Source of the DNA: Nemertoderma westbladi
Lineage: Eukaryota > Animalia > Xenacoelomorpha
Assembly (NCBI GenBank): GCA_032718475.1
Contig: JAUCBJ010006610.1
Coordinates: 1 to 64,000, forward strand
Reading direction: 5' to 3'
Length of the DNA: 64,000 nt
The notes beneath the pieces were generated by a model, which ran no database searches, had not been told where the DNA came from, and saw nothing but the letters and a program-made list of their open reading frames with translations. Made by a program: the position numbers and the translations under genes. Of the stretch, positions 15,201 to 62,976 are shown one piece after another. The first letter of the stretch is position 1. Each line of letters starts with the position of its first letter.

Positions 15201-16310
15201 ATCATCTCCACTCATACATAGATAATGATACATGATGTATAATTTAAGTTTGGACTGGGAGGGGGGATATTCGACGCAAATAGTGTTTTTCGAGATTATT
15301 CACGTATATTTTTCCTTTAGTCAAATATTTGCCGAAACAAATTTAAATAACGATTCACTGTATTCAATTTTATGAATTACACTATCTCATACATACAGTA
15401 GATAATCATACATACTGTATCATTCAGGTTGGGACTGGGGGTTTTTCGTTTATTGTATTCTTAGAAAAACGTGCCATATTGTAACCTGCTCCTTTCCCTT
15501 ACTGATTCTAAAATACCCAACTCTAAGGTTATCATTGAGAATCCGTTTCTTATCCTCCTTTAAATAAACGAAGAAGCGTTTCATCAGTTAATCCCTGAAA
15601 TTAAAACAAATATTATAAATAGATAGAACAAAAATAAATGTATGTTACATTCGGGCTTAGTAATTTCAGAATTTATAGATCCAATATAACATAGTTATAG
15701 GATCCAATGTAACATAATTGCGGTTACGTTCGATTCCAAATAACTATGTTACATTCGATCCTGATTACGTTCAGTCTGCCACCCTGTAACGTGTAACGGC
15801 CCAACGGCCCAACCCTGAACGCGAACGGTACTCTGGCAGTCTGGTACTGCGGTATACAGGTATATGGAATGGAGTGAGGTACCGGTACCGTATATAACTA
15901 TATATATACATACTGACTTGACAGCATGACATACATACCTGTCTGCCTAGGCCTACTGCCTGTATACCGGTAATAGCCTATTACCGGTAATAGGCAGATA
16001 GGCCCTATACTATAGGCCTATACAGATATAGGCCTACTACTGTACTACTACCTGAATATTTTATCGTACCCGGGTATTCCTTTACTATATCACTGTATCA
16101 GTATCAGTCTGTCAGTACCGGTACCTGTACAGCTGTATCTGTGTATTGCTGTATTGTAGGCCTATAGCAGTATAGGCCTATTCTAAATTCAGAAATTGTA
16201 CAGTTGTAACTTGTAAGTCTGTAAGTAAATACTGAAATACAGAAGTACCGGTAGGAGTAGGCCCGAGGAAGTTCTGATGAAATTTGCCGAGCTCGCGAGC
16301 TGATAATGTT

Positions 16311-23539: not shown

Positions 23540-23648
23540 GACTTACTCAACTCACGACGGTTTTAAAGAAAGCCAGCATGGATCCCGAAATGTTTAAGAA
23601 CTTTCAGCCGTTTTCTAACTTATTATTTATATCGAAGCTAGTCGAGAG
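23540..23648 (+). mobile_element. Small L2-like LINE RT fragment cut off by the LTR element
   Basis: LKKASMDPEMFKNFQPFSNLLFISKLVE matches LKKLRLDPEILNHFRPVSNLLYISKLTE of the L2 ORF2 at about 46200. Similarity stops where the LTR starts. Confidence 0.7.
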
Positions 23649-24820
23649 TGTTCGCGGTATTTCAACTTTTCCTAACGCGAGTTTAATATTTTTTGGATTT
23701 ATTTGAAATGAATATTCCAATATCAATACTGGGTGCGGGAACATGGAATTCGGGCACATTCAATGGACTGGGGGCGATTTACGGGCGAATATTGGGGCGA
23801 CTTACGGGGTACGGGACTCATGTCAGATATTTAAGGGCCAGGGGTGGGAGGCAAAGTTAAGCAGTACTCAGGTTTACCTGAATTACTATTAGGCCTAGCC
23901 AACTTCCTGCTGCCTGTAGAGGTGGATTTGGTAACTCGCTAGGCCTAGGGACAAGGCCCCTAGCGGTCCCTGGTCAACAGCAGTTATTACGAGCCTGAAT
24001 AAGGACTCGGAAAGTCTGCTGCTTGTGTCAGGGATTTGCGACGGGAACCGACAGACAGATCCTTAGCAGTCCCTGGTCACCGGCAGTTATTACGAGCCTG
24101 AATAAGGACTCGGAAAGCTTGCCGACTACGCCAGGGACTTGAGACGGGTCGACCGACTAAACGGAGGAAGGGTTCGACGAGGACTGCCTTCCTGGAGTGG
24201 GTTCCACGACCGGCGTTAGTATGAGCCTGAATAAGGACTTGGAAAACTACCAACAGTTGGGACTCACGATGGGCTGACAGACCCCTTGCCAAGCCGTACC
24301 GCTTTCCTGATGACCCATCCCTTCGGGGTTCGGGAAGGGTGGGACGGACACGCAACGGGGTCGAAAGACAAAGGACCGGACTCCACTGGCCTACCGACTG
24401 TTTGGAGCAGCTTCTCGGCTACCGAAGCGACTATGAGCCTGAAAAGGATTCGGAATGCTTAGGTGGTTGGTTCCCTGTGATGAACCGACGGACCCCTAGC
24501 CAAGCCGCACCGCTTTCCTGATGACCGATCCCTTCGGGGTTCGGGAAGGGTGGGACGGACATGCAAACGGGTCCACCGACGCGACAGACCCCTAGCCAAG
24601 CTGTACCGCTTTCCTGATGACCGATCCCTTCGGGGTTCGGGAAGGGTGGGACGGACACGCAACCGGGTCTACTGACTTGACCGACCCTTAGCCAAGCCAT
24701 ACCGCTTTCCTGATGACTGATCCCTTCGGGGTTCGGGGAGGGTGGGACGGACACGCAACAGGGTCGATCGACACCGACACTACGGTACCGAGACTAGGAC
24801 CGAGGGAAAATTGTGGAACA
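23649..24820 (+). repeat. 5' LTR (TGTTC...GAACA, about 1172 bp)
   Basis: Identity to the copy at 34002 begins exactly at TGTTCGCGG. The right end is inferred from the terminal inverted repeat GAACA; an alternative end at 25117 before TGGTGTCGG is possible. Confidence 0.75.
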
Positions 24821-25365
24821 TTAGTTAGGTTAAAATCTAAAGCGAACAGTGGGTAATTAAATAATGTACTGTAGGGATTTATATTGTCGTATATTATTGT
24901 GAATATTTGGTGTATATTGGTGTGGGGAAGCCCAACTTATTCTCAATCAAGATTCAACTGTAGGAAAGTTACATTAAAAGATTATATCCAACCAATGCAA
25001 CATTTTCTCAACCGCAATCTTGCATTTAAGAAAGTACTCCTCCACTCCCAATATCCAGTGACTGGCCGGAATTCCGTGGTTTAAAAGTTCCGCCTCCAGC
25101 ATCAGCGTTTTCCCCCATGGTGTCGGGAATAACGGCAACAAAATTGAGAATAAGACGCGGCCAACTTCAACTGGTGGAAGTTGGGAATTCTACAGTACTC
25201 TTTAACTTTAAACTCTCTCCGTGCTTACCCAGCACCCACTACGAGGAAACTCTGGTATTTGATTTAATCATTTTAATCGATTTAATCCGTGGTTCAATCA
25301 ATCTACAAACTCGAACTAAAAAACTCGTAGTCGGCAGATCATAAATAGAGAGTCGTTAACAGGGA

Positions 25366-25557
25366 ATGGAAGTATCGATCACACCTATTGATATAATCCA
25401 AGTTGAGCCAGGAATCTGGCACATCAAAGTCGAAGTACAAGGAACGAACGTTGGACGATTCAGGATTACCGTTCGGGTAGTCCAGGCTGAATACGAGACC
25501 TACGAAGAACTATTTTACGATATCACATATCTAGCGATCAACGAGGCGCTAGAATGA
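25366..25557 (+). CDS. Small upstream ORF (63 aa) overlapping the gag start (ATGA)
   Basis: ATG start with a globular-looking sequence. Its TGA overlaps the gag ATG. The second copy is frameshifted. Confidence 0.35.
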   Translation: MEVSITPIDIIQVEPGIWHIKVEVQGTNVGRFRITVRVVQAEYETYEELFYDITYLAINEALE

Positions 25558-27240
25558 CGACGAATAACGTCTCCGATACTGATGAAATGGACCCCCACAC
25601 AGACTCGGAAACCGACGAGGTACCAAATGTGAAGAACATGGCTCATCGACTGGGAGCTCTCAAAGGCGGAGTGACTCGAGCATACCACCGCATCGAGAAA
25701 CAACTAAAGGGAGCCGAGAACCCCCTCAGCGATATACAGACTCAATTACAGAATATCCGAAGTACCCTACAACGATATGAAGGGATGATACAGGCATATC
25801 AGGAACTCATTCCCGCAACCGATCTGGGAAACTACCCCAGACTGGAAGAACACGTCGCACATCTGGACGAGTTCCGCAAGCAACATCGGAGGACCCTCAG
25901 CCTCGTAAGAGGCTACGAGGAACAGTATTATAAACGAACTGAAAGGGCGGACGCAGAATCGGTACGGACCTGCGGAACCAGGACCGTGGTTCAGCGAAAA
26001 AAACTGGGTCCTCGAGGCACCAGCACTCCAGCGCTAGGATCGAGATATCTGGTTCAGCGCGCAGTTCTCAAGGGGGTCAACCACTCCGAGATCAGCTACG
26101 AGAACAGAGGGCACTGGCCCTTAAAGCTCGAATGGAAGACGAATATGTCCAACTACAGATTGAACAGGATGTATTAGCTGAGGAGAGACATAAACAGGAG
26201 GCCGAAATGCAGGCCGAGATACGGAAACAAGAGGCCGAACGACAAAAACAAGAGGCCGAAATGCGTAAAGTAGAGGCCGAACAACAGGCTGAGACACAGA
26301 AACAAGAGGCCGAACGACAAAAACAAGAGGCCGAAATGCGGAAAGTAGAGGCCGACCAACAGGCCGAGACACGGAAACAAGAGGCTGAACGACAAAAACA
26401 AGAGGCCGAAATGCGTAAAGTAGAGGTCGACCAACAGGCCGAGACACGGAAACAAGAGGCCAAAATGCGTAAACGAAGTGCCGAGGCCCAAGCGTTTCTT
26501 GTTCACAAAAAGAAAGCGGACATTGCTAAACTCGCAGACCACGAGGCCGCACTCATAGAACGGGACCTCCAACTATACGAGGACTGGGAAAGGGGTATAG
26601 AACAGGACTATGAACCAATCCCAGTCCCGGAATTAGAAAAGTCATTCACGCCACCGACCACGAAACCTCCGAAACCTGAGTTCCCGCCAACCATACAGTC
26701 TACGTTATCGGCACAAGCCCCGTATTCCATCCCCCACTGGTTACGCTTAAGAATGAGGAACCTTATTTCCCATCCAATCCCACGGCACCGAGTGTTCCCC
26801 AGTACGAGCCTGAAAAGGACTCGGAACGGGATGCCACCCCTCGATCCAATAATCCGTTCACATCCACACTGAAAATCTGTAACCGCGTCATCATTAAAAC
26901 CCCACCTCTCATCGATCCATCGTATATGGGAGAGAGTGTCAGTAATTATAATCCTCCTAGTCATTCCAGTTCAGACGACGTCGGCATCATCCGAACCTTG
27001 GAACACCGCCTGGCTATGCCCAAGATGGAGATCCGCACCTTCGAGGGAGACCCCGTCGATTACCTCGGATTTAAGATACGGTTCTTCGCTCAGATCGGGT
27101 CAACGGATATAACCGACGCACAAAAACTGGTATATTTATCCCAATACCTGGGTGACAAACCACGTCGAATCATTAAATGTTTCGAAGGAGGATCTCACGA
27201 AGCGTACCACGACGCATGGAAAACTCTAGATAAAAGATAA
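25554..27240 (+). pseudogene. BEL/Pao gag (frameshifted, truncated)
   Basis: The N-terminal helical region and coiled-coil repeats are followed by the BEL gag (DUF1759-like) motif MPKMEIRTFEGDPVDYLGF..QKLVYLSQYL..YHDAWKTLDKR. Confidence 0.85.
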
Positions 27241-27247
27241 GGAACTT

Positions 27248-29782
27248 ATGGAAAAGTTCCCAGAGGAAATCAGACTAGACGACAATAAAATGTATTCCGA
27301 GGGTGTGGATCACCGTGTACTCGGTATCGAATGGGACATAGAATTGGATGAGTTCATCTTCAAATATAACCCCCTACCCAAGCCCATGACAAAAAGGGGA
27401 TGTTTGTCTATAAAGAGTGCTATATTTGATCCACTAAACTTCATATCTCCAGTAACATTGGCTGGAATTAATTTGATCAAAGAGATGTGGATAGAAGGAC
27501 TGGGATGGGACGAAGAACTACCCCCATACCTCAGTTCCAAATTGAGAAAGTGGATGGAACAACTCGAACATCTACATCTTATGCGGATCCCTCGACCGTT
27601 CTTCCTCGATAAACTACCCACCGATATATTCCAGCTCCATACTTTCTCGGATGCATCGAATACCTGAATCGGCGTAGTTACCTTCTTAAGAAGATTAAGT
27701 CAGGATGGAAACGGCGATACAAGCTTCTTATTCTCTAAGGCTAAGATGGTATCCGGGGAATTCGTAGCAATGATACCGAGACTCGAGCTACAGGCCGCAG
27801 TTTGGGCAGTGAGACAGAACCGCATGATCATGCGGAAATTAAGAATCCCCATCGAATCGCAGCATTTCTGGGTTGATTCGAGTATCGTACTCTACTACCT
27901 CTACTCACCATCACGGCGACACACCACGTTCGTAGCGAACCGAGCCACGGAAATAAAACAGTGCACCGGCCGAGAACAGTGGCACCATGTAAACGGGAAA
28001 GAAAATCCAGCGGACTTATAGAGCAGAGGCGCCACCCCACGACAGCTTGGTAAGAGTAAACTTTGGCTCACAGGCCCAGAATTCCTACAGCAGCCACAAT
28101 TAACCTGGAGTACCCGATTCGATCCTGAACTAGATAGCGGAAAATACTCCGAAGACGACAAGGAGATCCGTAAAGTCCATAGAAGCGCCACTGTGGAGAT
28201 CTATAGTTGCCTGACCGAACATGCAAAGGACTCGGGCAGGCACTATAACATCGCGACTATCACGCAACCAGCGGCGTCTTTACAACTATTGATAGAGCGA
28301 ACCTCCTCAATGAGACGTCTCATCCACCATGTCATAACTCTTTGCAACTTCCTACGGTGGAAGGATAACAAACCGATAGTTCGACGAAGTATACAAGAAC
28401 TCATTATTGCGGAGGAATGTATTGTTAGATATGTCCAGAATGAAAGTTTCCCCGATGAGTGGGAACAGCTCAGTGCGGGCAAGACCTTGAAAAGGGGGAT
28501 GATGGGGGAAGATGGACTGATTCGACTAAATACCCGGATGGCAAACGCCCCGGTCGAATACAAAGTCAAATACCCAGAGCTTCTGCCCGGAACGTCAACA
28601 CTAGCCAAGCTATTAATCCAACAGTGTCACGAGGAAAACCATCACGCGGGCCAGAATTGGATTATGGTTAACATCCGGCAGATATATTGGATCTCCCACA
28701 TCCAGCCACTGATCCGGAAAGTATTAAAGCGTTGTTTCCCTTGCAGAAGATACCTAGCGCCACCGCTCACACAAAGAATGGCTGACCTACTGGCTACACG
28801 ACTGCAGTCCGACTCACCGCCGTTCTACATAACTGGAGTAGACTGTTTCGGACCATTTACAGTCATCGAGCGATGATCCAACATCAAATGCTGGGGAGCC
28901 ATCTTTACATGTCTTTGGTCTAGGGCGATTTACCTAGACCTCGTAGTAAACCTTACGCAACACGCATTTATCAATGCCCTGCGTCGGTTCGTGGCAAACA
29001 ATGGAACATGTCGTCATATGTACTCCGATAATGGTACAAACTTCGTGGGGGGAGAAAGAGAACTTAGAGAGGCGATCGAGGGATGGTTCACCGAAGACAC
29101 CGCATCCCAAGTCTGGAGGGAACACCATATACAGTGGCACTTCCAAACACCCTTAGCACCCCATACGAGCGGAGTGTGGGAGAAGCTCATCGACTTGGTA
29201 AAACGATCCATGCGCGTCGCATTAGGAGACACCCGGGTAACCCACGACACCCTCCGCACAACGTTCTGCGAGATCACGGCTACCCTAAACAACTGGCCCA
29301 TCGTACCTATCCGCGATGACCCCACAGATCTGGAGCCTCTCACTCCTAACCATCTACTCGGAAGACCCAAAACCCACATTCTTCCAGAGACGATGTTTCC
29401 GGATCCCAACGATATCGCGAGACATACCAATTGGAAGAAGGCCCAAGCGTTGGCAGCGCATTGGTGGAGAATCTGGCCCCAAGAGTACCTCATAACCCTC
29501 CGGACCAGGAGGAAGTGGAATAACACCTACAGGAACGTTGCAGTTGGCGACATGGTGCTAGTTAAGGAAGACCTTAAAGACCGCGTCCACTGGCCTGTGG
29601 CGCGAGTCGTGGCAATAACCCTAAGTAAAGACGGACTTGCGAGGACTGTGACGATACGAAAGGCAAAGGGCTACTACCAACGCCCTATCCAGAGGCTGTG
29701 CCTTCTTGAAGGCAATGACAGCGGTGACTCTACGAGAGGTGATAAGTTCCCTACTCCGGATCCTGCTGTTGGACATTGGTGA
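27248..29782 (+). pseudogene. BEL/Pao pol C-terminal half: RNase H/peptidase A17 region and integrase
   Basis: VLGIEWD, TKRGCLS..FDPLNFISP, LHTFSDAS, IPRLELQAA, FWVDS, NPAD, HHCC zinc finger, TGVDCFGP, YSDNGTNFVG, GVWE, LTPNHLL, GDMVLV..WPVARV. In-frame stops at about 27665, 28019 and 28874. Confidence 0.93.
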
Positions 29783-31065
29783 CAATGCTAAACCCGTTTA
29801 AACCCTTCTCATCCTGTTGATAAACTCTTTTAAAATGTGATTTACTGACAATGAATAATGGACCCCCCTTAAACCAACTGTAACCACGCAATGGTATTTG
29901 TGTTTCCTCGTGTGTTATGTGGAGTCCAGCGTCACCCTGCAGATGTTTCGACTGACGCAGGGTCGTTTATGTATTGTTTACCCTGATTTTGGTCATTGGG
30001 ACCAACTGTATTGGATTATTGGAAATGGTAAAGATTTGAAGTGGAATTCATTGTATCCATTGTTTTGTATTGTGTTGTCCATTGCGTGCGCAGTTCGAGG
30101 CGTAGGCCGTGTAACTAGTCCAGCTGTAGATCCTGAATTGCCGCGCAACACCCCCTCTATCCCGTTATTCTGGTGGGTCCATGGTGCATCCACATGACTT
30201 CGTCGATAGAGGTTTTATGTTTCTCAGTCGCGTTATTCTGGTGGGACCGTTGCCTGGATTTTGGGGCGTAGGCGGTGTAACTAGTCCAGCTGTAGATCCC
30301 AGAATGTTGCGTAACCCCATCTCACATGACTTCGTCGGCTGAGCTTTATGTTGTTGGGAGTGTTATTCTGGTGGGTCCCTGGTGCATTCCACGTGACTTC
30401 ACTCCCAGCGTCTTCATTGTCCGTTACGTGTGCAGTTTGGGGCGTAGGCGGTATAACTAGCCCAGCTGTAGATCCCAGATTGCCGCGTAACACCCCTTCC
30501 ACAACGAAAATTTCCCAAAGAAGATGATTGAATGTAGTTGGAAATGATGAAAAGAAACAGATGACCCTACTATAAACTGAATGATGACACGTATGATGAT
30601 GAAAATGTAATGATGCGCACCCTGGTGCTGCGCTTATAACAAATGATGATAGCCGGGGGGCTATAACCCCAATGATGAAATGGAAATAAATGAAATGTGT
30701 AATAAATGGTGTAATAAATGATGAAATGTGGAAATAAATGATGAAATGTGATGAAATAATGAAATGTGAAATGAGTAATAAATGAGAAATGAAAAAAGAC
30801 AAAAAAAATGTAAAAAATGTAGAAAGGAAAAGAATTGAAAAAAGAAGAGGACATAAAAAGTCAAAAACTGGTTGGATATTAATGTATAGCTATAGTAACT
30901 GTAAATACTGAATGTAGTAGCAATAAGATTGTAGATGCCTATATAGCAATAATAATTAATAAACTGAATTACAAATAAACTGAATTATTCTGCAGTCACT
31001 ATAGAATTAAACTTTCTGGATTTATAATTAACTGATGTAAATTTGCAACGGACATAATTGAAAAT

Positions 31066-33666
31066 ATGGACCCAAATTGCCAAATTCTCGGCGAACTACG
31101 TAATACACTAGATTTACTAGAATATCCACAGCCTGGATCTCCTAACTTCGATGCGGAATGGAACGCCCTGATAAATGAGAATGTGCGAATCATTAAATTC
31201 TCCGGGCGAGAGGGACCGGATTCCCGTAATCTACGAGAGCTCCGGTTGTCCGATGCTAGTACGAGACTGAAAAGAACTCGGAACGCAAAGGCAACCAGAG
31301 GAGAGGAGTTGTCGTTCTGGGATACGTTCCGGCAAAGCGTCTACAAATCCCGATGTTTCATATACGACAACGAGGGAAACGCGACGCCCACCTCGAAAGC
31401 GATTACGTTGGCGCGATGCCAAAGTTTCGTCGACGACAAGAGTACGTACCTCACCCACTGGGGAAACCTAGCGGAGTGTACAGCGACGCTGCGAGAGGAA
31501 CGTATATCAGTTATCCAGAATCGCGACGACTACCAGGAGAAGTATGGGACGAATGAATACGGTCGATCATTGGTCATCGTCCTCGGAACCTTGGATGGTC
31601 TGGTGTTGATATATCGAATATTCCCAACACCCAAACAGGAGGTGCGGACAGCCGGATCGATCTGGCTATTACCACCGGAGATCCAACAGATCCTATTTGA
31701 TTTTGATGTCATTAAAATCGGGTTGGTTATAAAGGCGGACGTCCGAAACGACTACGCTAATGCCCCTTTCGGAAGAAACCGTCGAGAAGATCTCAACGCC
31801 ATGAGTCATTGCGTCGATACCCAAACACTGTTAGCCTGGTTACGATCCACTGAATTCATGCGTGGACTCCGGGAGGTGAGACGGACAAAATCCGGTATCA
31901 GCTACCTCGCGGTGCTAAACGGCGGTATAGACTTTAAACCTCAGAAATTCCAGGATTATAATAAGATACATGGTGGGTACCCAGAATTAGAGATAAAGAG
32001 TGAGCGAGAGAGTCATTGGAAGGACGTAGAAAGAAAGTGGACAATCCACCACAAGTGGGAGAATCCGGATCGACGGAACTATATCTACGTCGTTATGGAA
32101 TCATACACAGTTGCCAAGTTCGTCTGTAAGACTCTCGATAATCTCATTAAGGCGGTTCCTAGATCCTTTATCGACTATGAGTGGAACGAAGTTATCGACC
32201 ACGCGTTCAAAGCGGTAGAGAATATTCCACCGGGAGAGACGAAAACGCTCCACGTCATCGCATCCTGGGACGAGAATGGACCGTTCGACATTCCTACGAT
32301 TGCTGATTTCCTCGGTGCAGAGGAACCACTGATATCTTCGGATGGGGAGGAATTATGGCTACAGGAAGGTGTCCTACTGTCCACACCAAAGCGACAACTC
32401 GATCCGGAAGTTGCGTACGAACCGGCCGCCAAACGGGTCACCTCGGCCGAACCTGCGATGGAAGTAGGTGTATCCACCCCACTTGGCTCCTGTAGTCCCG
32501 CTAGGGAGCTAGTAACTACCTTCGCGCTGAATGACTTCGGCGACATATGCCAGAGGTTGTCTCCATATCTGTTCCCGGGGGGAGAAGACTGGTCTTCGGA
32601 GATCCCGAGTACCAGCACCCAACAGACCCGCTCAGCGATACAGGTTGCAAAGGGTCCCAGCGTTGCTCCGACTCCCGTAGATCTCCTCGGAATTCCTCCG
32701 GCGAACGCCCCGGCACCTCTTCGCCGACCAGCTGTGGCAACGGCCCCTTCCGTTCCACAAGACCCTATGCGACTGACCCGATGGTACGCCAAACAGACCG
32801 AGTGGATCCACCACCAGAAACGGGCGCCCGGGATGCGACCGGCAGGCTATAAAGAAGGTTATCGAAATAAGAATATACTACGCCAAAGCCCAGCATTCTG
32901 CGGGCTACCAGCCACGGCGAGTATCCCCAAAAGCGACCAGCGACTGGAGTATTACGCCGGCGTCCCGATTCCGATATTCTTCGGCTGGGAGATGCAACTG
33001 GAGGTGTGCGGAAACTGCGGTTCGGAGCAGTGTCCACGCGGAAGGAGAAATCGGGTTACCGATTCGTGCCTCCAGCTCCTTGGGATACTCTACTGTCCCT
33101 ATTGCGCGACATCGGGCCACGATGTCTCGGTTTGTCCTATCCTTTACAACCTCTGCACAGATTGCGGCTTCCTTGGACATTCCGCAAGCCCCCGTTGTAA
33201 CATAAAGTGTCCTACGAAGGATGTAACCGCTATTGGAAATATGGTTATGTTTGAAACCTACGCCAATAACCACATAAAGACCAAAGTGCGGAGAAGCGCT
33301 CGAAATATCCCGCAAGAGATGGCGTGCGGGTACTTCTCGTTCCCAGAATGCCTCCATACGACAGCGACGCTACCATTCCATTACGTGGATCTATTATTAA
33401 GCGCTGGATTATTCGGCCCCTTCGAGATCCTTAGGCGTTTATATTCATATAAGGAAGAATTCGGTGACGGAAAGTGGTTCCTAGAGGCACGCACCACCGA
33501 GTTAGAGAGACGGACGGATATGATCCCGCTACCATCTAAGGGAAGAGCCGCCAGGAGACAAGCTGAAGCGATGCTCACGATGGACGTTGATGCTCCCCTA
33601 CCAGCACTGGCGATCGACGAGAGTAGACGGGCGAAGAGGAGAAAGGCGTATCTGAGTAAGAAATAG
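31066..33666 (+). CDS. Retrotransposon accessory protein: DnaQ-like 3'-5' exonuclease domain, CCHC zinc knuckles, basic C-terminus
   Basis: Uninterrupted 866-aa ORF. ExoI-like FIYDNE (D101/E103); WRN-like LPPEIQQILFDFDVIKIG..AD (D225); VDTQ; SGISYLA; ExoIII-like W..YVVME (Y341/E345). Zinc knuckles CPYCATSGHDVSVC and CTDCGFLGHSASPRC. C-terminal RRAKRRK. Confidence 0.8.
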   Translation: MDPNCQILGELRNTLDLLEYPQPGSPNFDAEWNALINENVRIIKFSGREGPDSRNLRELRLSDASTRLKRTRNAKATRGEELSFWDTFRQSVYKSRCFIYDNEGNATPTSKAITLARCQSFVDDKSTYLTHWGNLAECTATLREERISVIQNRDDYQEKYGTNEYGRSLVIVLGTLDGLVLIYRIFPTPKQEVRTAGSIWLLPPEIQQILFDFDVIKIGLVIKADVRNDYANAPFGRNRREDLNAMSHCVDTQTLLAWLRSTEFMRGLREVRRTKSGISYLAVLNGGIDFKPQKFQDYNKIHGGYPELEIKSERESHWKDVERKWTIHHKWENPDRRNYIYVVMESYTVAKFVCKTLDNLIKAVPRSFIDYEWNEVIDHAFKAVENIPPGETKTLHVIASWDENGPFDIPTIADFLGAEEPLISSDGEELWLQEGVLLSTPKRQLDPEVAYEPAAKRVTSAEPAMEVGVSTPLGSCSPARELVTTFALNDFGDICQRLSPYLFPGGEDWSSEIPSTSTQQTRSAIQVAKGPSVAPTPVDLLGIPPANAPAPLRRPAVATAPSVPQDPMRLTRWYAKQTEWIHHQKRAPGMRPAGYKEGYRNKNILRQSPAFCGLPATASIPKSDQRLEYYAGVPIPIFFGWEMQLEVCGNCGSEQCPRGRRNRVTDSCLQLLGILYCPYCATSGHDVSVCPILYNLCTDCGFLGHSASPRCNIKCPTKDVTAIGNMVMFETYANNHIKTKVRRSARNIPQEMACGYFSFPECLHTTATLPFHYVDLLLSAGLFGPFEILRRLYSYKEEFGDGKWFLEARTTELERRTDMIPLPSKGRAARRQAEAMLTMDVDAPLPALAIDESRRAKRRKAYLSKK

Positions 33667-33902
33667 AGGACCAGGATATTCCAGGGACATTTATATCGAA
33701 CATTTATTTTTATATATTTACATAAACTGACTCTAGAAAAAATTAGATGCTCCCCTACCAGCACTGGCGATCGACGAGAGTAGACGGGCGAAGAGGAGAA
33801 AGGCGTATCAGAGTAAGAAATAGAGGACCAGGATATTCCAGGGACATTTATATCGAACATTTATTTTTATATATTTACATAAACTGACTCTAGAAAAAAT
33901 TA
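33589..33902 (+). repeat. Tandem direct duplication of about 157 bp covering the accessory ORF end and 3' UTR
   Basis: GATGCTCCCCTACCAGCACTGGCG...CTCTAGAAAAAATTA occurs twice in succession, nearly identical. Confidence 0.92.
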
Positions 33903-34001
33903 ATCAAGACTATGCAATATTAAAATTTGGGTTTTTTTTATGGGAAATGACCTACGCAAACTCGATCTACCGATAGACCTCACGAAGGTCATTGGGGGGA
34001 C

Positions 34002-35045
34002 TGTTCGCGGTATTTCAACTTTTCCTAATGCGAGTTGAATATTTTTTGGATTTATTTGAAATGAATATTCCAATATCAATACTGGGTGCGGGAACATGGA
34101 ATTTGGGCACATTCAATGGACTGGGGGCGATTTACGGGCGAATATTGGGGCGACTTACGGGGTACGGGACTCATGTCAGATATTTAAGGGCCAGGGGTGG
34201 GAGGCAAAGTTAAGCAGTAATCAGGTTTACCTGAATTACTATTAGGCCTAGCCAACTTCCTGCTGCCTGTAGAGGTGGATTTGGTAACTCGCTAGGCCTA
34301 GGGACAAGGCCCCTAGCGGTCCCTGGCCAACAGCAGTTATTACGAGCCTGAATAAGGACTCGGAAAGTCTGCTGCTTGTATCAGGGATTTGCGACAGGAA
34401 CCGACAGACAGATCCTTAGCAGTCCCTGGTCACCGGCAGTTATTACGAGCCTGAATAAGGACTCAGAAAGCTTGTCGACTACGCCAGGGACTTGCGACGG
34501 GTCGACCGACTAAACGGAGGAAGGGTTCGACGAAGACTGCCTTCCTGGAGTGGGTTCCACGACCGGCGTTAGTATGAGCCTGAATAAGGACTTGGAAAAC
34601 TACCAACAGTTGGGACTCACGACGGGCTGACAGACCCCTAGCCAAGCCGAAGCGACTACGAGCCTGAAAAGGATTCGGAACGCTTAGGTGGTTTGGTCCC
34701 TGTGATGAACCGACGGACTCCTAGCCAAGCCGCACCGCTTTCCTGATGACCGATCCCTTCAGGGTTCGGGAAGGGTGGGACGGACACGCAAACGGGTCCA
34801 CCGACGCGACAGACCCCTAGCCAAGCTGTACCGCTTTCTTGATGACCGATCCCTTCAGGGTTCGGGAAGGGTGGGACGGACACGCAACCGGGTCTACCGA
34901 CTTGACCGACCCTTAGCCAAGCCATACCGCTTTCCTGATGACTGATCCCTTCGGGGTTCGGGAAGGGTGGGACGGACACGCAACAGGGTCGATCGACACC
35001 GACACTACGGTACCGAGACTAGGACCGAGGGAAAATTGGGGAACA
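34002..35045 (+). repeat. Second LTR (shared 3'/5' LTR), about 128 bp shorter
   Basis: Follows the PPT GGGGGGA. Matches 23649-24820 except that about 24297-24424 is missing. Confidence 0.8.
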
Positions 35046-36703
35046 TTAGTTAGGTTAAAATCTAAAGTGAACAGTGGGTAATTAAATAATGTACTGTAGG
35101 GATTTATATTGTCGTATATTATTGTGAATATTTGGTGTATATTGGTGTGGGGAAGCCCAACTTATTCTCAATCAAGATTCAACTGTAGGAAAGTTACATT
35201 AAAAGATTATATCCAACCAATGCAACATTTTCTCAACCGCAATCTTGCATTTAAGAAAGTACTCCTTCTCCACTCCCAATATCCGGTGACTGGCCGGAAT
35301 TCCGTGGTTTAAAAGTTCCGCCTCCAGCATCAGCGTTTTCCCCCATGGTGTCGGGAATAACGGCAACAAAATTGAGAATAAGACGCGGCCAACTTCAACT
35401 GGTGGAAGTTGGGAATTCTACAGTACTCTTCAAACTCTCAACGTGCTTACCCAGCACCCACTACGAGGAAACTCTGGTATTTGATTTAATCATTTTAATC
35501 GATTTAATCCGTGGTTCAATCAATCTACAAACTCGAACTAAGAAACTCGTAGTCGGCAGATCATAAATAGAGAGTCGTTAACAGGGAATGGAAGTATCGA
35601 TCACACCTTGATATAATCCAAGTTGAGCCAGGAATCTGGCACGTCGAAGTCGAAGTACAAGGAACGAATGTTGGACGATTCAGGATTACCGTTCGGGTAG
35701 TCCAGGCTGAATACGAGACCTACGAAGAACTATTTTACGATATCACATATCTAGCGATCAACGAGGCGCTAGAATGACGACGAATAACGTCTCCGATACT
35801 GATGAAATGGACCCCCACACAGACTCGGAAACCGACGAGGTACCAAATGTGAAGAACATGGCTCGTCGACTAGGAGCTCTCAAAGGCGGAGTGACTCGAG
35901 CATACCACCGCATCGAGAAACAACTAAAGGGAGCCGAGACCCCCCTCAGCGATATACAGACTCAATTACAGAATATCCGAAGTACCCTACAACGATATGA
36001 ACGGATGATACAGGCATATCAGGAACTCATTCCCGCAACCAATCTGGGAAACTACCCCAGACTGGAAGAACACATCGCACATCTGGACGAGTTCCGCAAG
36101 CAACATCGGAGGACCCTCAGCCTCGTAAGAGGCTACGAGGAACAGTATTATAAACGAACTGAAAGGGCGAACGCAGAATCGGTACGGACCTGCGGAACCA
36201 GGACCGTGGTTCAGCGAAAAAAAACTGGGTCCTCGAGGCTCCAGCGCTAGGAGCGAGATATCTGGTTCAGCGCGCAGTTCTCAAGGGGGTCAACCACTCC
36301 GAGATCAGCTACGAGAACAGAGGGCACTGGCCCTTAAAGCTCGAATGGAAGACGAATATGTCCAACTACAGATTGAACAGGATGTATTAGCTGAGGAGAG
36401 ACATAAACAGGAGGCCGAAATGCAGGCCGAGATACGGAAACAAGAGGCCGAACGACAAAAACAAGAGGCCGAAATGCGTAAAGTAGAGGCCGAACAACAG
36501 GCCGAGACACAGAAACAAGAGGCCGAACGACAAAAACAAGAGGCCGAAATGCGGAAAGTAGAGGCCGACCAACAGGCGGAGACACGGAAACAAGAGGCTG
36601 AACGACAAAAACAAGAGGCCGAAATGCGTAAAGTAGAGGCCGACCAACAGGCCGAGACACGGAAACAAGAGGCCGAAATGCGCAAACGAAGTGCCGAGGC
36701 CCA
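35046..36703 (+). mobile_element. Second tandem copy of the BEL/Pao internal region (leader and gag 5' part), truncated
   Basis: Near-identical to 24821-26492. Ends abruptly at GCCGAGGCCCAAG. Confidence 0.92.
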
Positions 36704-37800
36704 AGATCAGTTAGGTACTTGGCAGGATTTCCTCGACTTCTGGAGCCAGTAGGTGGAGTTATCATCACCCCATCATCATTATGATGATCTAAGGACATGC
36801 GTAGAACATAGTCAACAACAATTATGAACAAGAATGGTGCAAGTGTGTCTCCCTGGAGGACGCTCCATAACACTTCAAATGGTTCTGTGTCACCGTCAAC
36901 CGTAGACACAAATGTTGTCGAACCATCGTATACTGATCTGATCGCTGCAATAATTTCATCAGGAATCCCGCCCATATAATGAAAGTATGCTGAACATACG
37001 TGAGCGAGAGACTGAGTCAAAGGCCTTGAAGAAGTCAACAAAGATAACAGCCAGATGCCTGTCTTTCTTTTGTGATAACTCTTCAATTATCCTTCTAAGT
37101 GCCATAATGGGCTCCATGGTCCCACGACCTTTACGGAACCCATTCTGATTTCCACGGAGCAGTCTCTCAATGGGATCCCTGATGCGATTTAATAGAATTA
37201 TATTGTATAACTCGATCTAGCAATCGAGATCAATAAGATTCCCCGAAAAGAAGCAGAGAGTGTTAGGTTGCCCTTCTTGGGAACTGGCACCAACTTATTT
37301 GTTTTCATTTCTTGTGGGACTCTTGTTGTTCGGTACATGTCTACTATGATGGGATAGATGAGCTTTAAACACTCAGGTAATTTAAAGACCTCAGGGGGAA
37401 CACCATCTACTCCACTGGCACGATTGGTCTTAATGCTCTTTGCAGCAGCCTTCACTTCTGCAAAGGAGATATCACCAATGGGAATATCTGGGAGTACAGA
37501 CTCAGACACTTTTACTTCTATAAAGTTATCAGGCAATACCCTGTCATTATTGAGGAGCTTTTCAAAGTGGGCCTTCCAACCATTGAGGCGATCGGCTGGT
37601 GATTCAGCCTTAACCTTGGTGGTTGGTTGGCTTTTTCGACCAGCAAGCAAGTTGATCGATCTCCATGCCTGGGATGATTGCCTGCTGTCGTCAGCATCAT
37701 TGATGGCATCAACCTCACACAGCCCAGCACAAAATTTCTTACCCATCACCAAAAAGTACAAGTTTGCTATGTCCAGTGCCGTTTTTATTGATTCCATCGG
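36704..37800 (-). mobile_element. RTE-clade LINE RT fragment
   Basis: RASGVDGVPPEVFK, VPVPKKGNL..FRGI, QNGFRKGR, GIPDEII, VLQGDTLAPFLFIIVVDYVLR, then LTDL. It breaks just before the expected FADD motif. Confidence 0.88.
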
Positions 37801-49022: not shown

Positions 49023-49057
49023 TAGTCAGTCCACCCGCCTTGACTCATCAATTACAA

Positions 49058-50353: not shown

Positions 50354-51559
50354 TGTACGCGTGTACAGTACGGTTAAAATTAAAAGGTAGGCCTATTCAG
50401 CAGTCAGCTATTGCTATTGCAGTATTGGATACGTGTCAATGTCATTGTGCGGCACGAAAATTACAAGTAGCACAAATTTGATAATAAAAAATCATTACCT
50501 AATCAACCTGATTTTATGCCATTATGGGTATTCTGAGATGCTGATCACGAATATGACACACATAAATATCGTTTTATCCAACCAAATTTGATTTTTGCAG
50601 TTTGAAATTTTATGCTACATGTATTTTTAGTCCCACCAGGGACTTTTACTTGTACTTTTCATCCTGGAGGCCTAAATAGCACCAAAAATGATTGATGTAT
50701 TGCCAGAAAATATTTTTAACAAGTTTTATCGTGATCAGCGTCCTCGACATTGTAATTTTTGAGCCAAGATCTAAAAAAAGAAAAAAAAGATAAAAAAGGC
50801 AAGCCCCCCCCCCCCCCCCCCCCCCACGGGCCAATTAAGTATTGTAGTAATATAGCCCGGGCCAGATAGCAGATAGTGTTAAACGTACAGGTAACTCAGG
50901 ATTGGTAGTAACTGAATAGGAATCTCTTAATTTTCGCATCAAACACATAGTAGAGTAGAGTAAAATAAAGTATCAGTTCCTCAAATCATTAAACGACACT
51001 ATATTCCAGGATAGTTAATAAGAATTCCCCTAAATAATATCAGTTCCTCATTATATTGAAGTCGTAATATTAATTTATCTCAGTTATTATATAACCTTTG
51101 ACTATTAAATCCAAGAGGCAGTTAGAAGCGAACACTGTTAAAGTGACCACGCATATTGTCTATAACTTGAGATCCTTCGAAAGGGCCGATATGTCCTCGG
51201 GGGATTCAGATAGGATTCCCGCTGGTTTAGGCATGATAATAACACTAGCGTTATGGATATTAAAGAATAACCCCCCCCCCCCCCACCCCAAGAGTCCAGC
51301 AGTCTCTACATCAGATAAAGAACTTATTTTACTCTCCTTTATGAATTTCAAAATTTGAGGCATTTAGCACACTAAAGTCGGAACAGATTCCGGGTTTACT
51401 GAATATATCGCCTATCGAAATATAGAAATATAAGTTAGTGGAAGCGGAAGGCCCTGGTGTCATCTGTTCTGTGTTGAAAAGCCCTGACTAGTCGAACTAA
51501 GTGCCACTTTGTAGACCGAGCGCGTGGGCGGCATCTGTAGGCCTACACATCTACAGTGC

Positions 51560-52940
51560 CATGAGGATCCTGAGAAGTATTTCCTGTTGATGAAAAATCC
51601 GCAGATGCGCTTAAAGGATTCCTTATCCAGCATGATGTTTGATGGACTCAAACATGTTGGAGGGAGATTAACTAATGCACCACTTTCCTTTGATACTAAG
51701 TTCCCCATCATCATTAGAAATCTTGAAATACAAATCAAGATGATTGTATATATCCATAGTAATCTTTATCATGCTGGTAGGGAACGAGTTCTTAGCGAAG
51801 TCAGAACGTGCTATTATTTTTATAAGCCGCATAAAGCACTAAATCAAGTTCTTAGGAACTGCACACCATGTAGGAAAGCATTTAGTAGGCCTTTAACCCA
51901 GCGAGAGGCAGAATTACCTACAGTAGGGAAAGAGTAAGCTGTTATGAACCACCCCTAACTAATACTGGTGTGGATTTATTTAGCCCTATTTAGGTATGTC
52001 GTACTAGAACTATAGTCAAGCGATGGTGCGTCATTTTTGTTTGTATGACTTGTAGAGCGATTCATCTGGACATGGTGAACGATTTGTCTACTAATAGTTT
52101 CATACTCAGTCTATGCCAACAAATCGCTCGCTTTCGGACTAGCAATACCATGCAATCGGATAAAGGCACCAACTTTATCAGAGCCAACAACGAGATAAAG
52201 GCTTACGTCAACGACTGGAACCAGCAACAGGTAGATGATCAGCTGAGAGTGACAGCATCCAGCTGGACTTTCAATGCCGCTGATGCTCCATGGTGGGGAG
52301 GAAGTTGGGAGAGACTTATACGCAGTGTCAAGACCGCATTCCACTTTGTCGTGCCATGCCGCGCGTATCTCACTGATGAACTCCTACGAACTCTAATGGT
52401 GGAAATTGCCGCCTACCTGAACGAGTGACTGCTCATGCCAGTCTCTTCCAGTCCCGATTCCCTAGAAGCGCTAACACCCGTGCACATTCTACTGAAGAAG
52501 CCGGTGGCCATGCTTCCCACTTCGGATATAAACGACGGAGACGAGTATTGTAAACAAACTTGGCAGCTCATGCAATTGTTATCCCGCCGTTTCGCTGACC
52601 ATTTCGAGAAGTATAATCTCCCGATGCTGCAGCTTAGAACTAAGTGGTTCGCGCAGCAGTCAGTACCGGAGACATGGTTTTAATAGTTGATTCGGATCTA
52701 CCTCACAAGAGGTAGCAGATAGGTCGTATCATCGAGACCCATATATCCGACGACGGTTTAGTGCGATCGGTAGAACTCATTGTAAAGAGACAAAACCATA
52801 AGAAGAAAGGAATCATCTTCGAGACACAACAACTGAACCGCCCCGTTGGTCGTCTATGTCTAATAGAACGAGACAGGGAGTTGTCTGGAAATTACGGTAA
52901 ACAGGAAACACTCCCGACGACCACCTCCCAGATTAAATGA
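51560..52940 (+). pseudogene. BEL/Pao integrase relic (second family)
   Basis: VGGRL..PII, H..HAG..CTPC, TGVDLF, TCRAIHLD, SDKGTNFI, PWWGGSWERLIRSVK, LTPVHIL, DDGLVRSV, RPVGRLCLI. Many stops and frameshifts. Confidence 0.9.
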
Positions 52941-54146: not shown

Positions 54147-57100
54147 ATGCTCGCTAGCCTTATATTAGCGCCGATAAACTCCCATACAATGACTGAACTG
54201 ATAGAAGAAGACCTTGGTATTAAGGAGAGATATACACAACCTCTACAAGCGTTTCTCGATAGTTTGTTGAGTGGTGATGCTAGTCAATCTACGACTGCAG
54301 ACAATGGATAATACATCGAACCACCGATGACCGAGGAACAACTTAAGCGAGAACTCGATTATAGAAAATTCATCTCACGCTATACGCATCGCGATGGTAC
54401 GTATATGGATTTCTTAACTACTGGTCATCCTATCGATTTACATGATACTGATGCTATGGATATGGAGACAGGGATGGTTCTATTTAAGTTTCACACACAA
54501 TGGAGTCGAAATGACAAACAACGTATCGAACATGAAAACTCTATTAGAAATCGTTTCGAAAGAGAAGATGTGGAAGAACCCGATAAACGCACTAACTTTT
54601 ACGAATATATGGAGTTCCTGTGAGAGACTTATCTCAATATCGCTAGTCAATAGAACTTGGAAACTCGATATCCTCAAGGTATAGATCCTGACCCCATGAT
54701 CGAACTCAAATGATTATATTTTACGATGATGTACCTTACAGCGAATCAACTGCTACCTGTTCTGCTGGACAGCTTCAAACAGATGGAAGAATACTGTAAA
54801 ACGGGAGAAAGGTTACCAGCATTTCCTCTACAAGATGTGCGTCTTTGGTATTATTGTGACTAATGCCCAACGCCATAAACATCCGCGGAGACGTTGCGAT
54901 AAACATAGTTTTACTTACAGGACTTACGGGAGTTTTGAGCGAAACCTATTTGACATCCCTCCCATGCTTGCTCGAGTCAAACGCTCCTTAAGTAAACCCA
55001 TGATCAGAGTTCCGGAATACTCGGTCAGGCCTCCCCACCCCTCAGTGCGACCACAAACTCTCGATCCTAAAAGTATAACCGACCCTCCTGAGTTATACTC
55101 ACTGTTCAAAGATCTAGTTCTACCCGAACAGTTAATCGGTGGCATTTCAGCTGTCGGTTCCATGGATATCTGTCCAACATACCCAGCCGGATTGGGACGA
55201 GGAGACTTGATCTCCCCGTTCAACCCCTATAATCGGCCTGGGTTAGCTCCTATCCAACCTGTTACAGAAGTGGAAGAAAGCATAGTAAAGAACGTGCTTG
55301 AAGCGATTCGCCAAAAGGTCAGAAAAGGAACTTACAATGTCTTAGACAAACGCAAGTTGCATCAGCAGGTGCAGGCTGTGAAAGAATTGCCATTACCTTA
55401 ATTCGATCGAGAGATTGAAGAGCTAGAGAGAGATATTGAACTCGGACATACATATTCTCTACAAGAATGCTTGGGTGATAGGTTTCGTAGACAAGAAAGA
55501 AAGAGGAGAAACAGATTGAAATGAATGAAAGAGAGGAAGCCGCTTTAGTGCAACCTGAAGCGCAAGTACTCATGATAGACCTCTACTTGAAAACTATCCT
55601 ACATCCCTCAATGGTTCCCCAGTTTGGCGATCAACTCTTTGCCACTATGCAACCTCAACCAGTCAAAACTGATTTGAGATCTCGCGAGCTTATCGCTGAT
55701 GCCCACAGGTTACAGCATTCCCTAATTGAAACCACTCGAGTAGACGGTATACTGATAGAACCTCCAGAAAATCAAACCGACCTTATCGGGCGTATGGTGC
55801 AAGAGGTTACTATGTGAGTGAGACCCTTGCAAAACTCATTCTACGGGATCAAAGACCACCCATATTTCGTCCATCTGGCTCAATATTATATGGTGAAACC
55901 CGAAGATCCTACACACAGCTTAAGATTTCTGCCCCTGATAAATCCTTTCGATGTTGTTGAATTAGAACAGCTTCAAAAACATCTAGACCAGTTGGTTAAG
56001 TCGAACTCCTTTCGAAAACCCTATAATGTTGCAAGAATTGAAAGGGAAGTTCTCCCTCATTACAACCTTGATGGATTCATCAAAACTCAATTAGTCCATT
56101 GGAATTTGGATGTGTTGTTCGAAGAAGAATGCATACAACACTATGGGAAAGAAGATATGCATACTACGCACTATTTAAAATATTGCGACCTCCCTAATGC
56201 GAGTGATAGAGCGACATTGTGGCACCCTGTAGATATGACTTTGGAAAAGGCCACTACCCCATAGAATGAAACTCGAAATATTATCTAAATGTATGGTGTA
56301 ATGTATGGCAAACTAATGTCGGAACTACGAGATTAATCCACATTCGGGGATTAGCCGGTTCTATACACGTCTTTACTCGTGCTTGCTCTGATGCCATCGA
56401 TTACTCTTTTGAGACCCTCACAGAGACCCAAAAGAGACTTAAACATGAGCAATTGGAACTCGCATGGCGTTAAGTCCTGAATACTGAGTGGAAACCAGCT
56501 ATGGGAATAGATGGATTCATGCTTCCGCAACCTGTACTCGAGATGTTATTCGACGATAAAATAATTAAAGTCGGTTCTGTGATCTATGGAGATCTTCAGA
56601 AGGATTTTAGGAATATGAATAATATTCCATATCCGTTCATCGATACCCAGCTAATAGCGCCTTGGGCAGAAGGCAGAGGATTTTTCCAAACCACTTACGC
56701 CACTACACCTAGTGGGATCAACAAAGTTCAAAGAACTTCTATCGGACATTTGGCGTATCAAGAGTATGGATGGAATTATAAGGTTGGGAATCAGCTCAAC
56801 TATCAGCAAGTTTATGGCGACCATTATTCTCGCTTATATTTCGATGGACCATTGACGGCACCAGGAGAAGTTTATAGTTTTATGAGTGTGCTCCTCCGTG
56901 CTTCCTTAGCCATTTATACTATATTCGAAAATACAGCACTTTCCAGATAGTTAGCCGATGTGTGCAGCCGAACTATACGTTCACACCCCTTAATCCTGGG
57001 AACCAAATGCACGAAATTAGTTGAACATAACAAATTTATCCGATTTGAATGTTTCAGGCACTTTCTGACTCTGTTTCGGAACATTGATAGTCAGTTTAAA

Positions 57101-58480
57101 GACTGCACACTGACCAAACTCAGCCTGCGAGATTCCGCTGCTGAGAAATTAGATAGTGCCGGATCCGCTATCTGCAAAGATGTATGCATACAGAATATGC
57201 ATTCTACTGTTCTACAGAGACCTAAACTCCTGTCGGGATATTCGGTTATGGAAATACAAACTGTAGAAACCATATCAAGAATGACTATACCTGTAGAAAT
57301 TCTTCCGACTGACGAGGAACCAACCTGTATGGTTGAATGTAATGGTTGATGGTGGCTGAACCAACCAATCCAGCCCACAGTCCCTCGTAGTAGTGATGAT
57401 GATCACACGCTGGAATGGTATCAAGGCACACAATGTCTCACTGCCTATGACTACTGACACGCCAGCTACGTGTCTAGGAAACTCTGCCGTTTATGCGCCT
57501 CTCGTGATCACACTACTCCGTTGACCTCTGATGAACTCTGTTCCTACTTTAAAGATGGAGATATATTGTGCTTATTATCGAGTCAATGATAAGCATATCT
57601 TCGCAGTCTGTCCACAGTTCATGACATAATGTCATCACTGTCAGTTAAAGGGACACGCTAGTTGGGATTGCCCTTTTAGCCCCAACATGGAAAGCGTAGA
57701 TGAGTTGATTGTATTGCGATACATATGAGCATGGGAAGCTAGCGCAGACCTTCACTGCGATTTGCACCACTGCTACTATCCCGGACGCACCTATGAGGGA
57801 GTGTACGCGTTTCACCCTTACCTATTTCCCCAAACCAAACAGAAAACTCATATTCCCAGTTATGAACTACTCAAACGTGTTGGTGAGTCCATTTTCACCA
57901 AATATATGAGGAAATATTTGAGAAATATCATCCCGAACAACCTGAACTCATATAATATACTTGGTTGTATCGGCCGGCCGAGACCTGGAGTACGGTAAGA
58001 CATTTCTAAATACACATCCCGAGTTGCAGGAGGTCCACCAACACCCTTATGAATATAAGACGAGGGAATGGGAATTAGTAAGAACTGTAAAACCCCGTAA
58101 ATACCTCACGACCCATGGCCTACCAATGGCAGTCGTATAAATGACTAAAGCAGGACCAGTCCAAGCTGCATTCCTAAGACAAGCGTTAAAGATCGTGCAA
58201 CCTCAATCCATTTGATCCTCTGGTAGACGTGTCGATACCAGAACAACTTCTCAGGAGAGAAGCATATCTTCTATGGATATCAATCAACCAGGTACCTCGA
58301 CCGGCGGATACACCTATCGTAACCCCAACCCTTCTGATGCAATTATATTGTACCCTTCCCCAAGAAGTTATAGCCCTCCGAGTAAAGTGGCTCGTAGCAT
58401 TGGGAAGAATACAACCACAGCCCAAAGGTTCAAGAAACTCCATAAACGTCATTCTAGAAAGAAAGATTGATTGTTTAGAG
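54147..58480 (+). pseudogene. Decayed accessory ORF of the second BEL/Pao element, homologous to 31066-33666
   Basis: Chain of plus-strand ORF fragments. 56501-56830 reads LPQPVLEMLFDDKIIKVGSVIYGDLQKDF..FIDTQLIAPW..SIGHLA..GWNYK. 57485-57675 reads CRLC..H..C / YCAYY..H..VCP..CHHCQLKGHASWDC. It is followed by a PPT-like GGGAGCGG and TGTTAAG at 58551. Confidence 0.72.
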
Positions 58481-62500: not shown

Positions 62501-62976
62501 GCCACCTAGCCAATTTGGCGTCTCAGTTAATTCCTTGGGTATCGCTCTTCTGGAGACGATATCGGTGGGATTAATAGTCCCAGGGCAATATCTCCATTGG
62601 TCCACCTTTGTCTGGCTGAGTATAATATCCACGCAGTTAGTTATAAAGACGCTGAACTGGCAGACTTCGTTAGTCAAATATTCTAGAACGAGTAATGCAT
62701 CTGTCCAATAAACCGTTTTCTCCAACAGGTATACTATCTGTTCGGTGATATTCCTACCAATGGCGGTAGCATACAATGCTGCCTTTAATTCCGCTCTAAG
62801 GACACGCAGCTTGTTGTTTATTAGAGCTTTCGAGGTGGCTAAGGAAACCTTAATTCTGTCCAGTGTATCGACTCTCAAATAAGCTACTATACCTATTCCA
62901 ATATCACTGGCATCCGCAAAGACGTGGAGTTGATAGGAGTAGGTGGGGAGAACAGGACCGAAGTATGAGTGAGAAA
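59521..62976. repeat. Tandem segmental duplication, unit about 1728 bp
   Basis: 59521-61248 is near-identical to 61249-62976 (both begin TTTGTATGAGTTTA.GCTGTTTCATAGTCCCC). Each unit holds non-coding DNA plus a BEL pol fragment. Confidence 0.92.
60220..61248 (-). pseudogene. Duplicated BEL/Pao RNase H-region fragment
   Basis: LHIFADA, RAELKAA, YWTDA, WRHCPGTINPTDIASRG, WLGGPDFL, YSSWKRL. Confidence 0.88.

Follow-up and report, generated by a model that had tools for sequence, protein, structure and literature searches.

A BEL/Pao retrotransposon of Nemertoderma westbladi carries a third gene, ORF3, whose predicted product joins a DEDDy exonuclease-like domain to three zinc knuckles, and genes of this kind occur in at least four BEL/Pao lineages. 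We give a probability of roughly 0.5 to the reading that ORF3 acts as a helper that binds the RNA of its own element. This reading starts from the position of the gene, its spread, the homology of its domains and a synonymous bias among its copies, and from these we infer all of the functional steps.

The element lies in the window, by which we mean the whole 64,000-nucleotide stretch of DNA that was analysed. Pfam identified DUF1759, Peptidase_A17, Integrase_H2C2 and DUF5641 in gag-pol order. Since these domains are Pao specific, the host element of ORF3 was assigned to BEL/Pao. Its parts are as follows.

23649..25117, + strand: 5' LTR of 1,469 bp, TG...CA, with internal repeats (by comparison with the 3' LTR)
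25118..25135, + strand: putative PBS, starting TGG directly 3' of the 5' LTR (from the sequence)
25554..27240, + strand: gag remnant in several frames, with a partial DUF1759 at its end (ORFs; Pfam DUF1759, E 6e-5)
27248..29782, + strand: 3' part of pol, with Peptidase_A17/RNase H, integrase H2C2, core and DUF5641 (Pfam)
29783..31065, + strand: noncoding spacer with three 83-nt repeats (at 30075, 30241 and 30417) and an A-rich stretch
33589..33902, + strand: 157-bp tandem duplication that repeats the end of ORF3 and its stop codon
33994..34000, + strand: polypurine tract (PPT), G-rich (from the sequence)
34002..35345, + strand: 3' LTR of 1,344 bp, TG...CA, common to the tandem second copy
35346..36705, + strand: tandem second copy, with PBS and gag start, truncated by other repeat DNA (97% identity to 24422-26492)

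The two LTRs are identical at 1,314 of 1,341 aligned bases (98%). At 1.3 to 1.5 kb they are longer than the range of 0.2 to 1.2 kb that the ICTV profile gives for Belpaoviridae, the BEL/Pao elements of metazoans (PMC8742986). The copy that bears ORF3 is defective: gag is broken, the main pol frame contains 4 stops in 845 codons, and it lacks the protease and most of RT: tblastn with these two regions of a related element (L005, below) found no match within the element. The LTR repeats look hammerhead-like by eye; this candidate was rejected after Rfam reported no match at E 1 in 23600-36800.

ORF3 itself (31066-33666, +) spans 866 codons from ATG to stop with no internal stop or frameshift, downstream of Peptidase_A17, Integrase_H2C2 and DUF5641 and upstream of the PPT and 3' LTR. 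An earlier sequence-only reading had described an intact 866-aa sense ORF between the integrase and the PPT/3' LTR, in a BEL/Pao element whose third gene is not env, and the ORF listing, the Pfam domain set and the LTR comparison bore this out. Pfam found no envelope family in ORF3. Just one stretch of the protein is strongly hydrophobic (aa 168-186; Kyte-Doolittle 1.9). It falls in a predicted sheet that corresponds, in the alignment, to strands two and three of EXD2 and Egalitarian, and the eight stretches that rank highest in hydrophobicity are confined to aa 164-189. The following features were placed within the gene.

31260..31283, + strand: 24-nt motif common to both LTRs and gag, predicted small hairpin
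31366..31374, + strand: candidate ExoI motif D101-x-E103, assignment uncertain
31540..32169, + strand: DEDDy-like core, aa 159-368, with D225 (ExoII), DTQ and Y341-x3-E345 (ExoIII with Glu)
32998..33441, + strand: zinc domain, aa 645-792, with one degenerate and two CCHC knuckles and a conserved FE..A...T...G...Y...L module
33622..33663, + strand: basic C-terminal tail, NLS-like by eye (from the sequence)

The N-terminal domain of ORF3 very probably belongs, judging from profile comparisons, to the WRN/EXD2/Egalitarian group of DEDDy exonucleases, as had been suggested by eye. When an eight-row profile of ORF3 relatives was searched against the PDB, EXD2 was the top of 4 matches (E 0.0042), with a match that spans only the ExoI-ExoII half, from the first strand through ExoII. 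A five-sequence family profile matched only Egalitarian and EXD2 up to E 10, both at E 0.16-0.17. In the Atlas feature search, clusters of PF01612 made up 24 of 30 matches (score 0.93); the top three matches were unnamed clusters, and the PF01612 match covered 165 of 256 features against the tool's guide value of 170. A profile built without the ORF3 of this window matched its aa 159-368 at 53 bits. The LP motif, K.G...D225, DTQ (D251), G+..LA and Y341-x3-E345, from which the domain had been recognized, are all in register with the relatives.

Other searches were negative. Pfam, the check that the earlier reading had proposed, reported no exonuclease match for ORF3 or for any relative scanned, and a single-sequence PDB search with the exonuclease-like domain of L005 found no nuclease. 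Two AlphaFold models reached a pLDDT of only 32.5 and 36.8, a confidence at which the lack of a Foldseek match at E 0.001 is meaningless. The EXD2/Egalitarian/WRN-exo group (PDB 6K17 and 9UJU; PF01612) provides the best solved matches for the N-terminal domain. ORF3 differs from that group in falling below the Pfam threshold, in its mobile-element context, in the replacement of the ExoIII Asp by Glu in 4 of 8 ORF3 lineages and in an additional conserved stretch, containing [KRN]P, that separates ExoII from ExoIII.

The fusion of this domain to zinc knuckles, as put forward in the sequence-only reading, is supported. The CCHC knuckles at aa 677-690 and 697-711 and the basic tail are present as first described; the former is an exact C-x2-C-x4-H-x4-C and the latter an x5 variant. 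A third, degenerate knuckle (aa 648-668) and the module that follows the knuckles are additions to that description. Pfam matched zf-CCHC_4 at E 0.002, below its cut-off, and an Atlas search with the zinc domain returned only scores of 0.85 or less. The zinc profile matched Lin28, HIV nucleocapsid, TbRND and Air2 (E 0.001-0.1), and because of these matches we favor an RNA-binding role. Invariant columns number 21 in the zinc domain (6 sequences) and 5 in the exonuclease domain (5 sequences).

The relatives were collected in several searches. A phmmer search of 1.84 billion representatives gave 6 matches at E 0.001 or better, of which 5 were left after P0007, a PKD-repeat protein, was rejected as a false match. 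P0002, P0003, P0005 and P0006 contain both the N-terminal and the Cys-rich domain and P0004 the Cys-rich domain alone; none of these relatives has an informative name or a Pfam match above the cut-off. Word-index protein searches found no ORF3 relatives, an alignment search returned the seed alone, and among viral contigs none of 217 candidate stretches was confirmed. When metagenome contigs were scanned with zinc-domain patterns, 13 loci (L001 to L013) were retained from 241 candidates. The exonuclease profile matches 10 of the 13, 4 of which served to build it. The loci are not independent and form about two BEL-linked groups plus singletons.

A BEL integrase or DUF5641 lies upstream on the same strand in 7 of the 13 metagenome loci. 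L005 contains an intact 2,277-aa BEL gag-pol with the full domain set and ORF3 directly downstream of it, its near-twin L007 has an open gag-pol of more than 2,250 codons followed by ORF3, and in L008 two LTRs flank pol and ORF3. No BEL pol was found upstream in the other 6 loci. Two of these (L002 and L012) offer too little sequence ahead of the match. In L001, decayed direct repeats flank an intact ORF3, and 8.6 kb contain no pol. Upstream of the gene lie a remnant of a Gypsy-type RNase H in L003 and a DDE_1 transposase in L006, whereas in L009 there is a long N-terminal part that is unrelated. The window itself holds a second BEL family with a decayed ORF3.

51515..52919, + strand: remnant of integrase and DUF5641 from the second BEL family, whose integrase is 31% identical to that of the first
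56474..57758, + strand: ORF3 of the second family, decayed, with an exonuclease-like part at 56474-56989 and a zinc domain at 57552-57758 (by profiles)

Within the window, the profiles match this decayed ORF3 at E 9e-10 (exonuclease-like) and 6e-6 (zinc), and the gene order is the same, with BEL integrase/DUF5641 and then ORF3. In line with the earlier reading, the relatives are mostly found behind a BEL integrase. Four BEL-linked lineages can be distinguished: this element, the second window family, L005/L007 and the L008 group. Their integrases are 30 to 32% identical, and their exonuclease-like domains are roughly 20 to 32% identical where aligned. These data establish ORF3 as lineage cargo behind the integrase in at least four divergent BEL/Pao lineages. 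The relatives maintain open frames of 630 to 880 codons at 20 to 30% identity; broken copies occur in L004, L008, L011, L013 and the second window family.

The sequence-only reading also held that the nuclease is intact. For this copy the claim hangs on ExoI: D225, DTQ and Y341-x3-E345 are in register, but the match of D101/E103 to ExoI does not go beyond chance. It is the sole hhhDxE in aa 1-220 and the best 21-residue match to the helix and ExoI block of the relatives, a match equalled in 255 of 2,000 shuffles (p about 0.13), and searching ORF3 with a profile made from this block only yields no domain. The strand that usually comes just before ExoI instead has its match at aa 145-159 (5 of 1,000 shuffles), downstream of D101. 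From D101/E103 to the conserved LP motif there are 98 residues in ORF3 versus 29 to 65 in the relatives; inserts of smaller size are tolerated here in L005 and P0006. D225, the ExoII Asp, is in register with the relatives and with EXD2/Egalitarian, and ExoIII is Y341-x3-E345 rather than the canonical Y-x3-D. From the order of the motifs, either the region has been rearranged around a large insert or ExoI has been lost in what would be a binding-only protein. An internal duplication as the cause of this order was unsupported (890 of 2,000 shuffles). A copy-specific ExoI deletion was rejected as well: contigs of three DNA runs (two samples), some of which bridge the ExoI site, show no indel row across 31150-31900, and the ExoI arrangement is therefore the family state. 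The odds that the ORF3 copy described here would be catalytically active are about even.

The motifs were compared across eight lineages, namely this ORF3, the second window family, L005/L007, the L001 group, P0002, P0003, P0005 and P0006. L005/L007 are canonical (DxE, D and Y-x3-D); P0002 and P0003 differ in ending with Y-x3-E after DxE and D. In the L001 group, DxE and Y-x3-D are present but ExoII lacks an in-register Asp. ExoI is unreadable in the second window family, which shows D and Y-x3-E, and P0005 and P0006 keep the first Asp alone. The ExoIII Glu of ORF3 is thus shared with P0002, P0003 and the second window family, and Asp is found in L005/L007 and the L001 group. All four acidic residues are in register in 3 of the 8 lineages and mostly lost in 2 (P0005 and P0006); counting doubtful cases, 5 lineages have lost catalytic residues or may have done so.

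Contigs from DNA runs of the same species revealed a multicopy family of ORF3 elements with variants along the whole element. Among 40 variants listed of 124 variant sites (aa 42-268), 22 were synonymous versus 11.6 expected (p 5e-4) and 18 changed a residue. There is therefore a synonymous bias among ORF3 copies.

A motif of 24 to 25 nt is repeated in the element, with four copies in each LTR, one in gag and one in ORF3, far beyond chance. All copies fold into the same predicted small hairpin, and 41 of 42 pair cells hold; the pairs are kept by one-sided changes only, with no two-sided compensatory change. The motif is absent from all 13 related metagenome loci. It could act as a cis signal, and that it is the binding site of the ORF3 protein is a guess.

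The precedents that the sequence-only reading had named, DEDDy ORFs in bdelloid rotifers and in nematode Cer1, were traced in part. DEDDy ORF3s are described in the rotifer Gypsy elements Juno and Vesta and in Athena/Terminon elements, but Cer1 is not mentioned in the available text of that paper (PMC5408684), and no exonuclease appears in that of the paper on the Cer1 protein CERV (PMC10309623). Like ORF3, the rotifer proteins are DEDDy-like, occupy the third-gene position and lack a membrane segment, and their function is given as untested (PMC5408684). Their hosts are Ty3/Gypsy or Penelope-like rather than BEL/Pao elements, their motif is DEED where ORF3 has Glu at ExoIII, and the accessible sections describe no zinc-knuckle fusion and no BEL/Pao case (PMC5408684).

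The fusion of an exonuclease to CCHC knuckles does have a cellular precedent that the earlier reading did not name. TbRND, the RNase D of Trypanosoma brucei (PDB 7C42/7C45), is likewise a DEDD exonuclease with C-terminal tandem CCHC knuckles, which are reported to provide RNA binding and to increase cleavage (PMC7797062). By profile, the ORF3 knuckles match those of TbRND (E 0.004). TbRND is, however, a cellular mitochondrial enzyme with four knuckles after a short linker (PMC7797062), whereas ORF3 has three knuckles and an extra module about 270 residues after the exonuclease-like domain. Since the ORF3 exonuclease profile does not match TbRND, the shared architecture is probably convergent.

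Within the superfamily, some Belpaoviridae carry env-like genes (Roo F-like and gB-like; PMC8742986, PMC13524379) in the position that ORF3 takes here, after pol and before the 3' LTR. As described there, these encode membrane glycoproteins, whereas the ORF3 product is predicted to be a soluble nucleic-acid-binding protein. The ICTV profile names env-like third genes only (PMC8742986). No BEL/Pao exonuclease gene was found in the available text of BEL/Pao and envelope surveys searched by term (PMC3118150, PMC6238403, PMC13524379) or in a literature search mostly at title and abstract level, and a precedent may exist in Repbase, Dfam, GyDB or supplements. A functional analogy is offered by CERV of C. 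elegans Cer1, a Cys-rich nuclear protein encoded by the element and required for export of its genomic RNA (PMC10309623). CERV belongs to a Gypsy element and shares its N-terminal part with Gag; it is likened to ORF3 by description, and the accessible text mentions no exonuclease (PMC10309623). As an LTR element's own RNA-export protein, CERV supports the reading of ORF3 as a helper for element RNA.

As such a helper, the ORF3 protein would grip single-stranded RNA with its knuckles and, in the manner of TbRND, feed the 3' end into the DEDDy pocket. Where all four acidic residues are present, the protein would trim this end; in other lineages it would only bind, like Egalitarian, and thereby protect, export or localize the genomic RNA. 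The basic tail may bring the protein into the nucleus. We place binding above catalysis because the zinc domain is the more invariant (21 versus 5 columns), because catalytic residues are mostly lost in two lineages, and because the zinc domain is also doubled (P0005) or occurs without the nuclease (P0004/P0008 and L009). The relatives were found mostly via the zinc domain, and this conservation argument is therefore biased in its favor. For Egalitarian, RNA binding, also to the I-factor signal, is reported not to depend on the catalytic residues (10.1101/2025.08.03.668247), and the persistence of ORF3 beyond its catalytic residues in some lineages fits this behavior. Against the helper reading, the repeated capture of DEDD nucleases by retroelements may mean that catalysis is the point.

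Alternatively, ORF3 could serve counter-defense by trimming or degrading host piRNAs, siRNAs or their precursors, or by competing with trimming enzymes, and so weaken silencing. This is the main rival, although unlikely: among the closest named relatives, the EXD and Egalitarian group, are proteins of small-RNA pathways, for example Exd1; TbRND, whose architecture is the same, is reported to deplete guide RNAs (PMC7797062); DEDDy third genes are described as captured at least twice in rotifers (PMC5408684); and three lineages have all four acidic residues in register. The gene nevertheless persists in five lineages whose catalytic residues are lost or doubtful, and a suppressor acting in trans would, we reason, benefit competing elements too. 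The same loss of residues in several lineages weighs on a role in DNA processing, in which ORF3 would trim or proofread cDNA 3' ends in the course of reverse transcription or ahead of integration and its knuckles would serve as a second nucleocapsid. EXD2 and WRN are reported to cut DNA (PMC6648332) and the ORF3 knuckles resemble retroviral nucleocapsid, but most BEL/Pao elements lack a gene of this kind and still replicate (PMC8742986), and as a separate ORF 1.3 kb after pol, ORF3 would not be packaged within the polyprotein. We regard this role as improbable.

Two further explanations were considered. Broken copies are many and motifs are degenerate in several lineages, as expected of a neutral passenger, in which a piece of a host gene, once captured, would be copied with the element and decay. 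The recurrence of the gene in the same slot of four lineages with about 30% integrase identity, its open frames of 630 to 880 codons at 20 to 30% identity and the synonymous excess make this very improbable. Slightly less probable still is that the host kept this copy of ORF3 after the death of the element. Such domestication would account for 866 codons without a stop beside a pol with 4 stops in 845 codons and a large deletion, and for the intact ORF3 without pol in L001. The difference of 0 versus 4 stops is not significant, however (about p 0.06), the LTRs are only 2% apart, many variant copies occur in the runs of the same species, and a nonautonomous derivative, like TelKA2n as described in rotifers (PMC5408684), explains the pattern equally well.

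BEL/Pao third genes have so far been described as envelope-like, and ORF3 is an enzyme-derived nonenvelope gene that spans deeply split lineages. With it, the capture of DEDDy genes, described for Gypsy and Penelope-like elements of rotifers, reaches a further LTR superfamily. More tentatively, a deep and undescribed BEL/Pao clade may long have carried its own RNA-handling protein, made of an EXD/Egalitarian-type nuclease and a zinc domain and alternating between active and binding-only forms, which might disarm small-RNA silencing or recognize the repeated hairpin in the manner of Rev or Egalitarian. Natural ORF3 variants with canonical DEDD motifs, with Glu at ExoIII or without the motifs share one conserved zinc domain, and the function of retroelement exonucleases is therefore testable with purified proteins.

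A 24- to 25-nt hairpin-forming motif recurs in both long terminal repeats (LTRs), gag and ORF3 (the 866-aa exonuclease-like and zinc domain gene) of the first BEL/Pao element, at these positions in the window:

23988-24455, hairpin-forming motif, 5' LTR
26803, hairpin-forming motif, gag
31260, hairpin-forming motif, ORF3
34341-34680, hairpin-forming motif, 3' LTR

The LTRs also hold GC-rich 96-nt repeats (24268-24781 and 34704-35006), which by eye appeared hammerhead-like and to which Rfam gave no match. At the end of ORF3, a 157-bp tandem duplication (33589-33902) repeats the final codons and stop.

A second, divergent BEL family (51515-57758, plus strand) also has an ORF3 of the first element's type, in decayed form. 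Its integrase is separated from the exonuclease-like part by a gap of ~3.5 kb containing unassigned open frames, none of which was matched by Pfam:

54730-55401, open frame
55818-56264, open frame

Three further features were found in the window:

59521-63944, minus strand, third BEL remnant with RT and Peptidase_A17, containing a 1.73-kb tandem duplication (96% identity)
44832-50392, minus strand, LINE-like element with endonuclease and RT motifs recognized by eye; its long ORF includes two in-frame repeats, a 30-bp tandem array and a second, Pro-rich one
16281-18758, plus strand, uninterrupted 825-codon ubiquitin-specific protease frame (UCH, E 1e-56)

The protease frame is more GC-rich than the flanking DNA and is possibly an intronless gene or a retrocopy.

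Among the metagenome loci with an ORF3-type zinc domain, two showed variant architectures. L002:79-2022 (protein relative P0005) has the zinc domain twice, alongside a degenerate nuclease, and L009:3-3485 is a 1161-codon frame that ends in the zinc domain and gave no match to the exonuclease. At L001:8082-11145 and L004:6118-10618, the latter holding two exonuclease-like copies, decayed direct repeats flank ORF3 and pol is scarce or absent. These two loci may represent non-autonomous derivatives that have retained ORF3.
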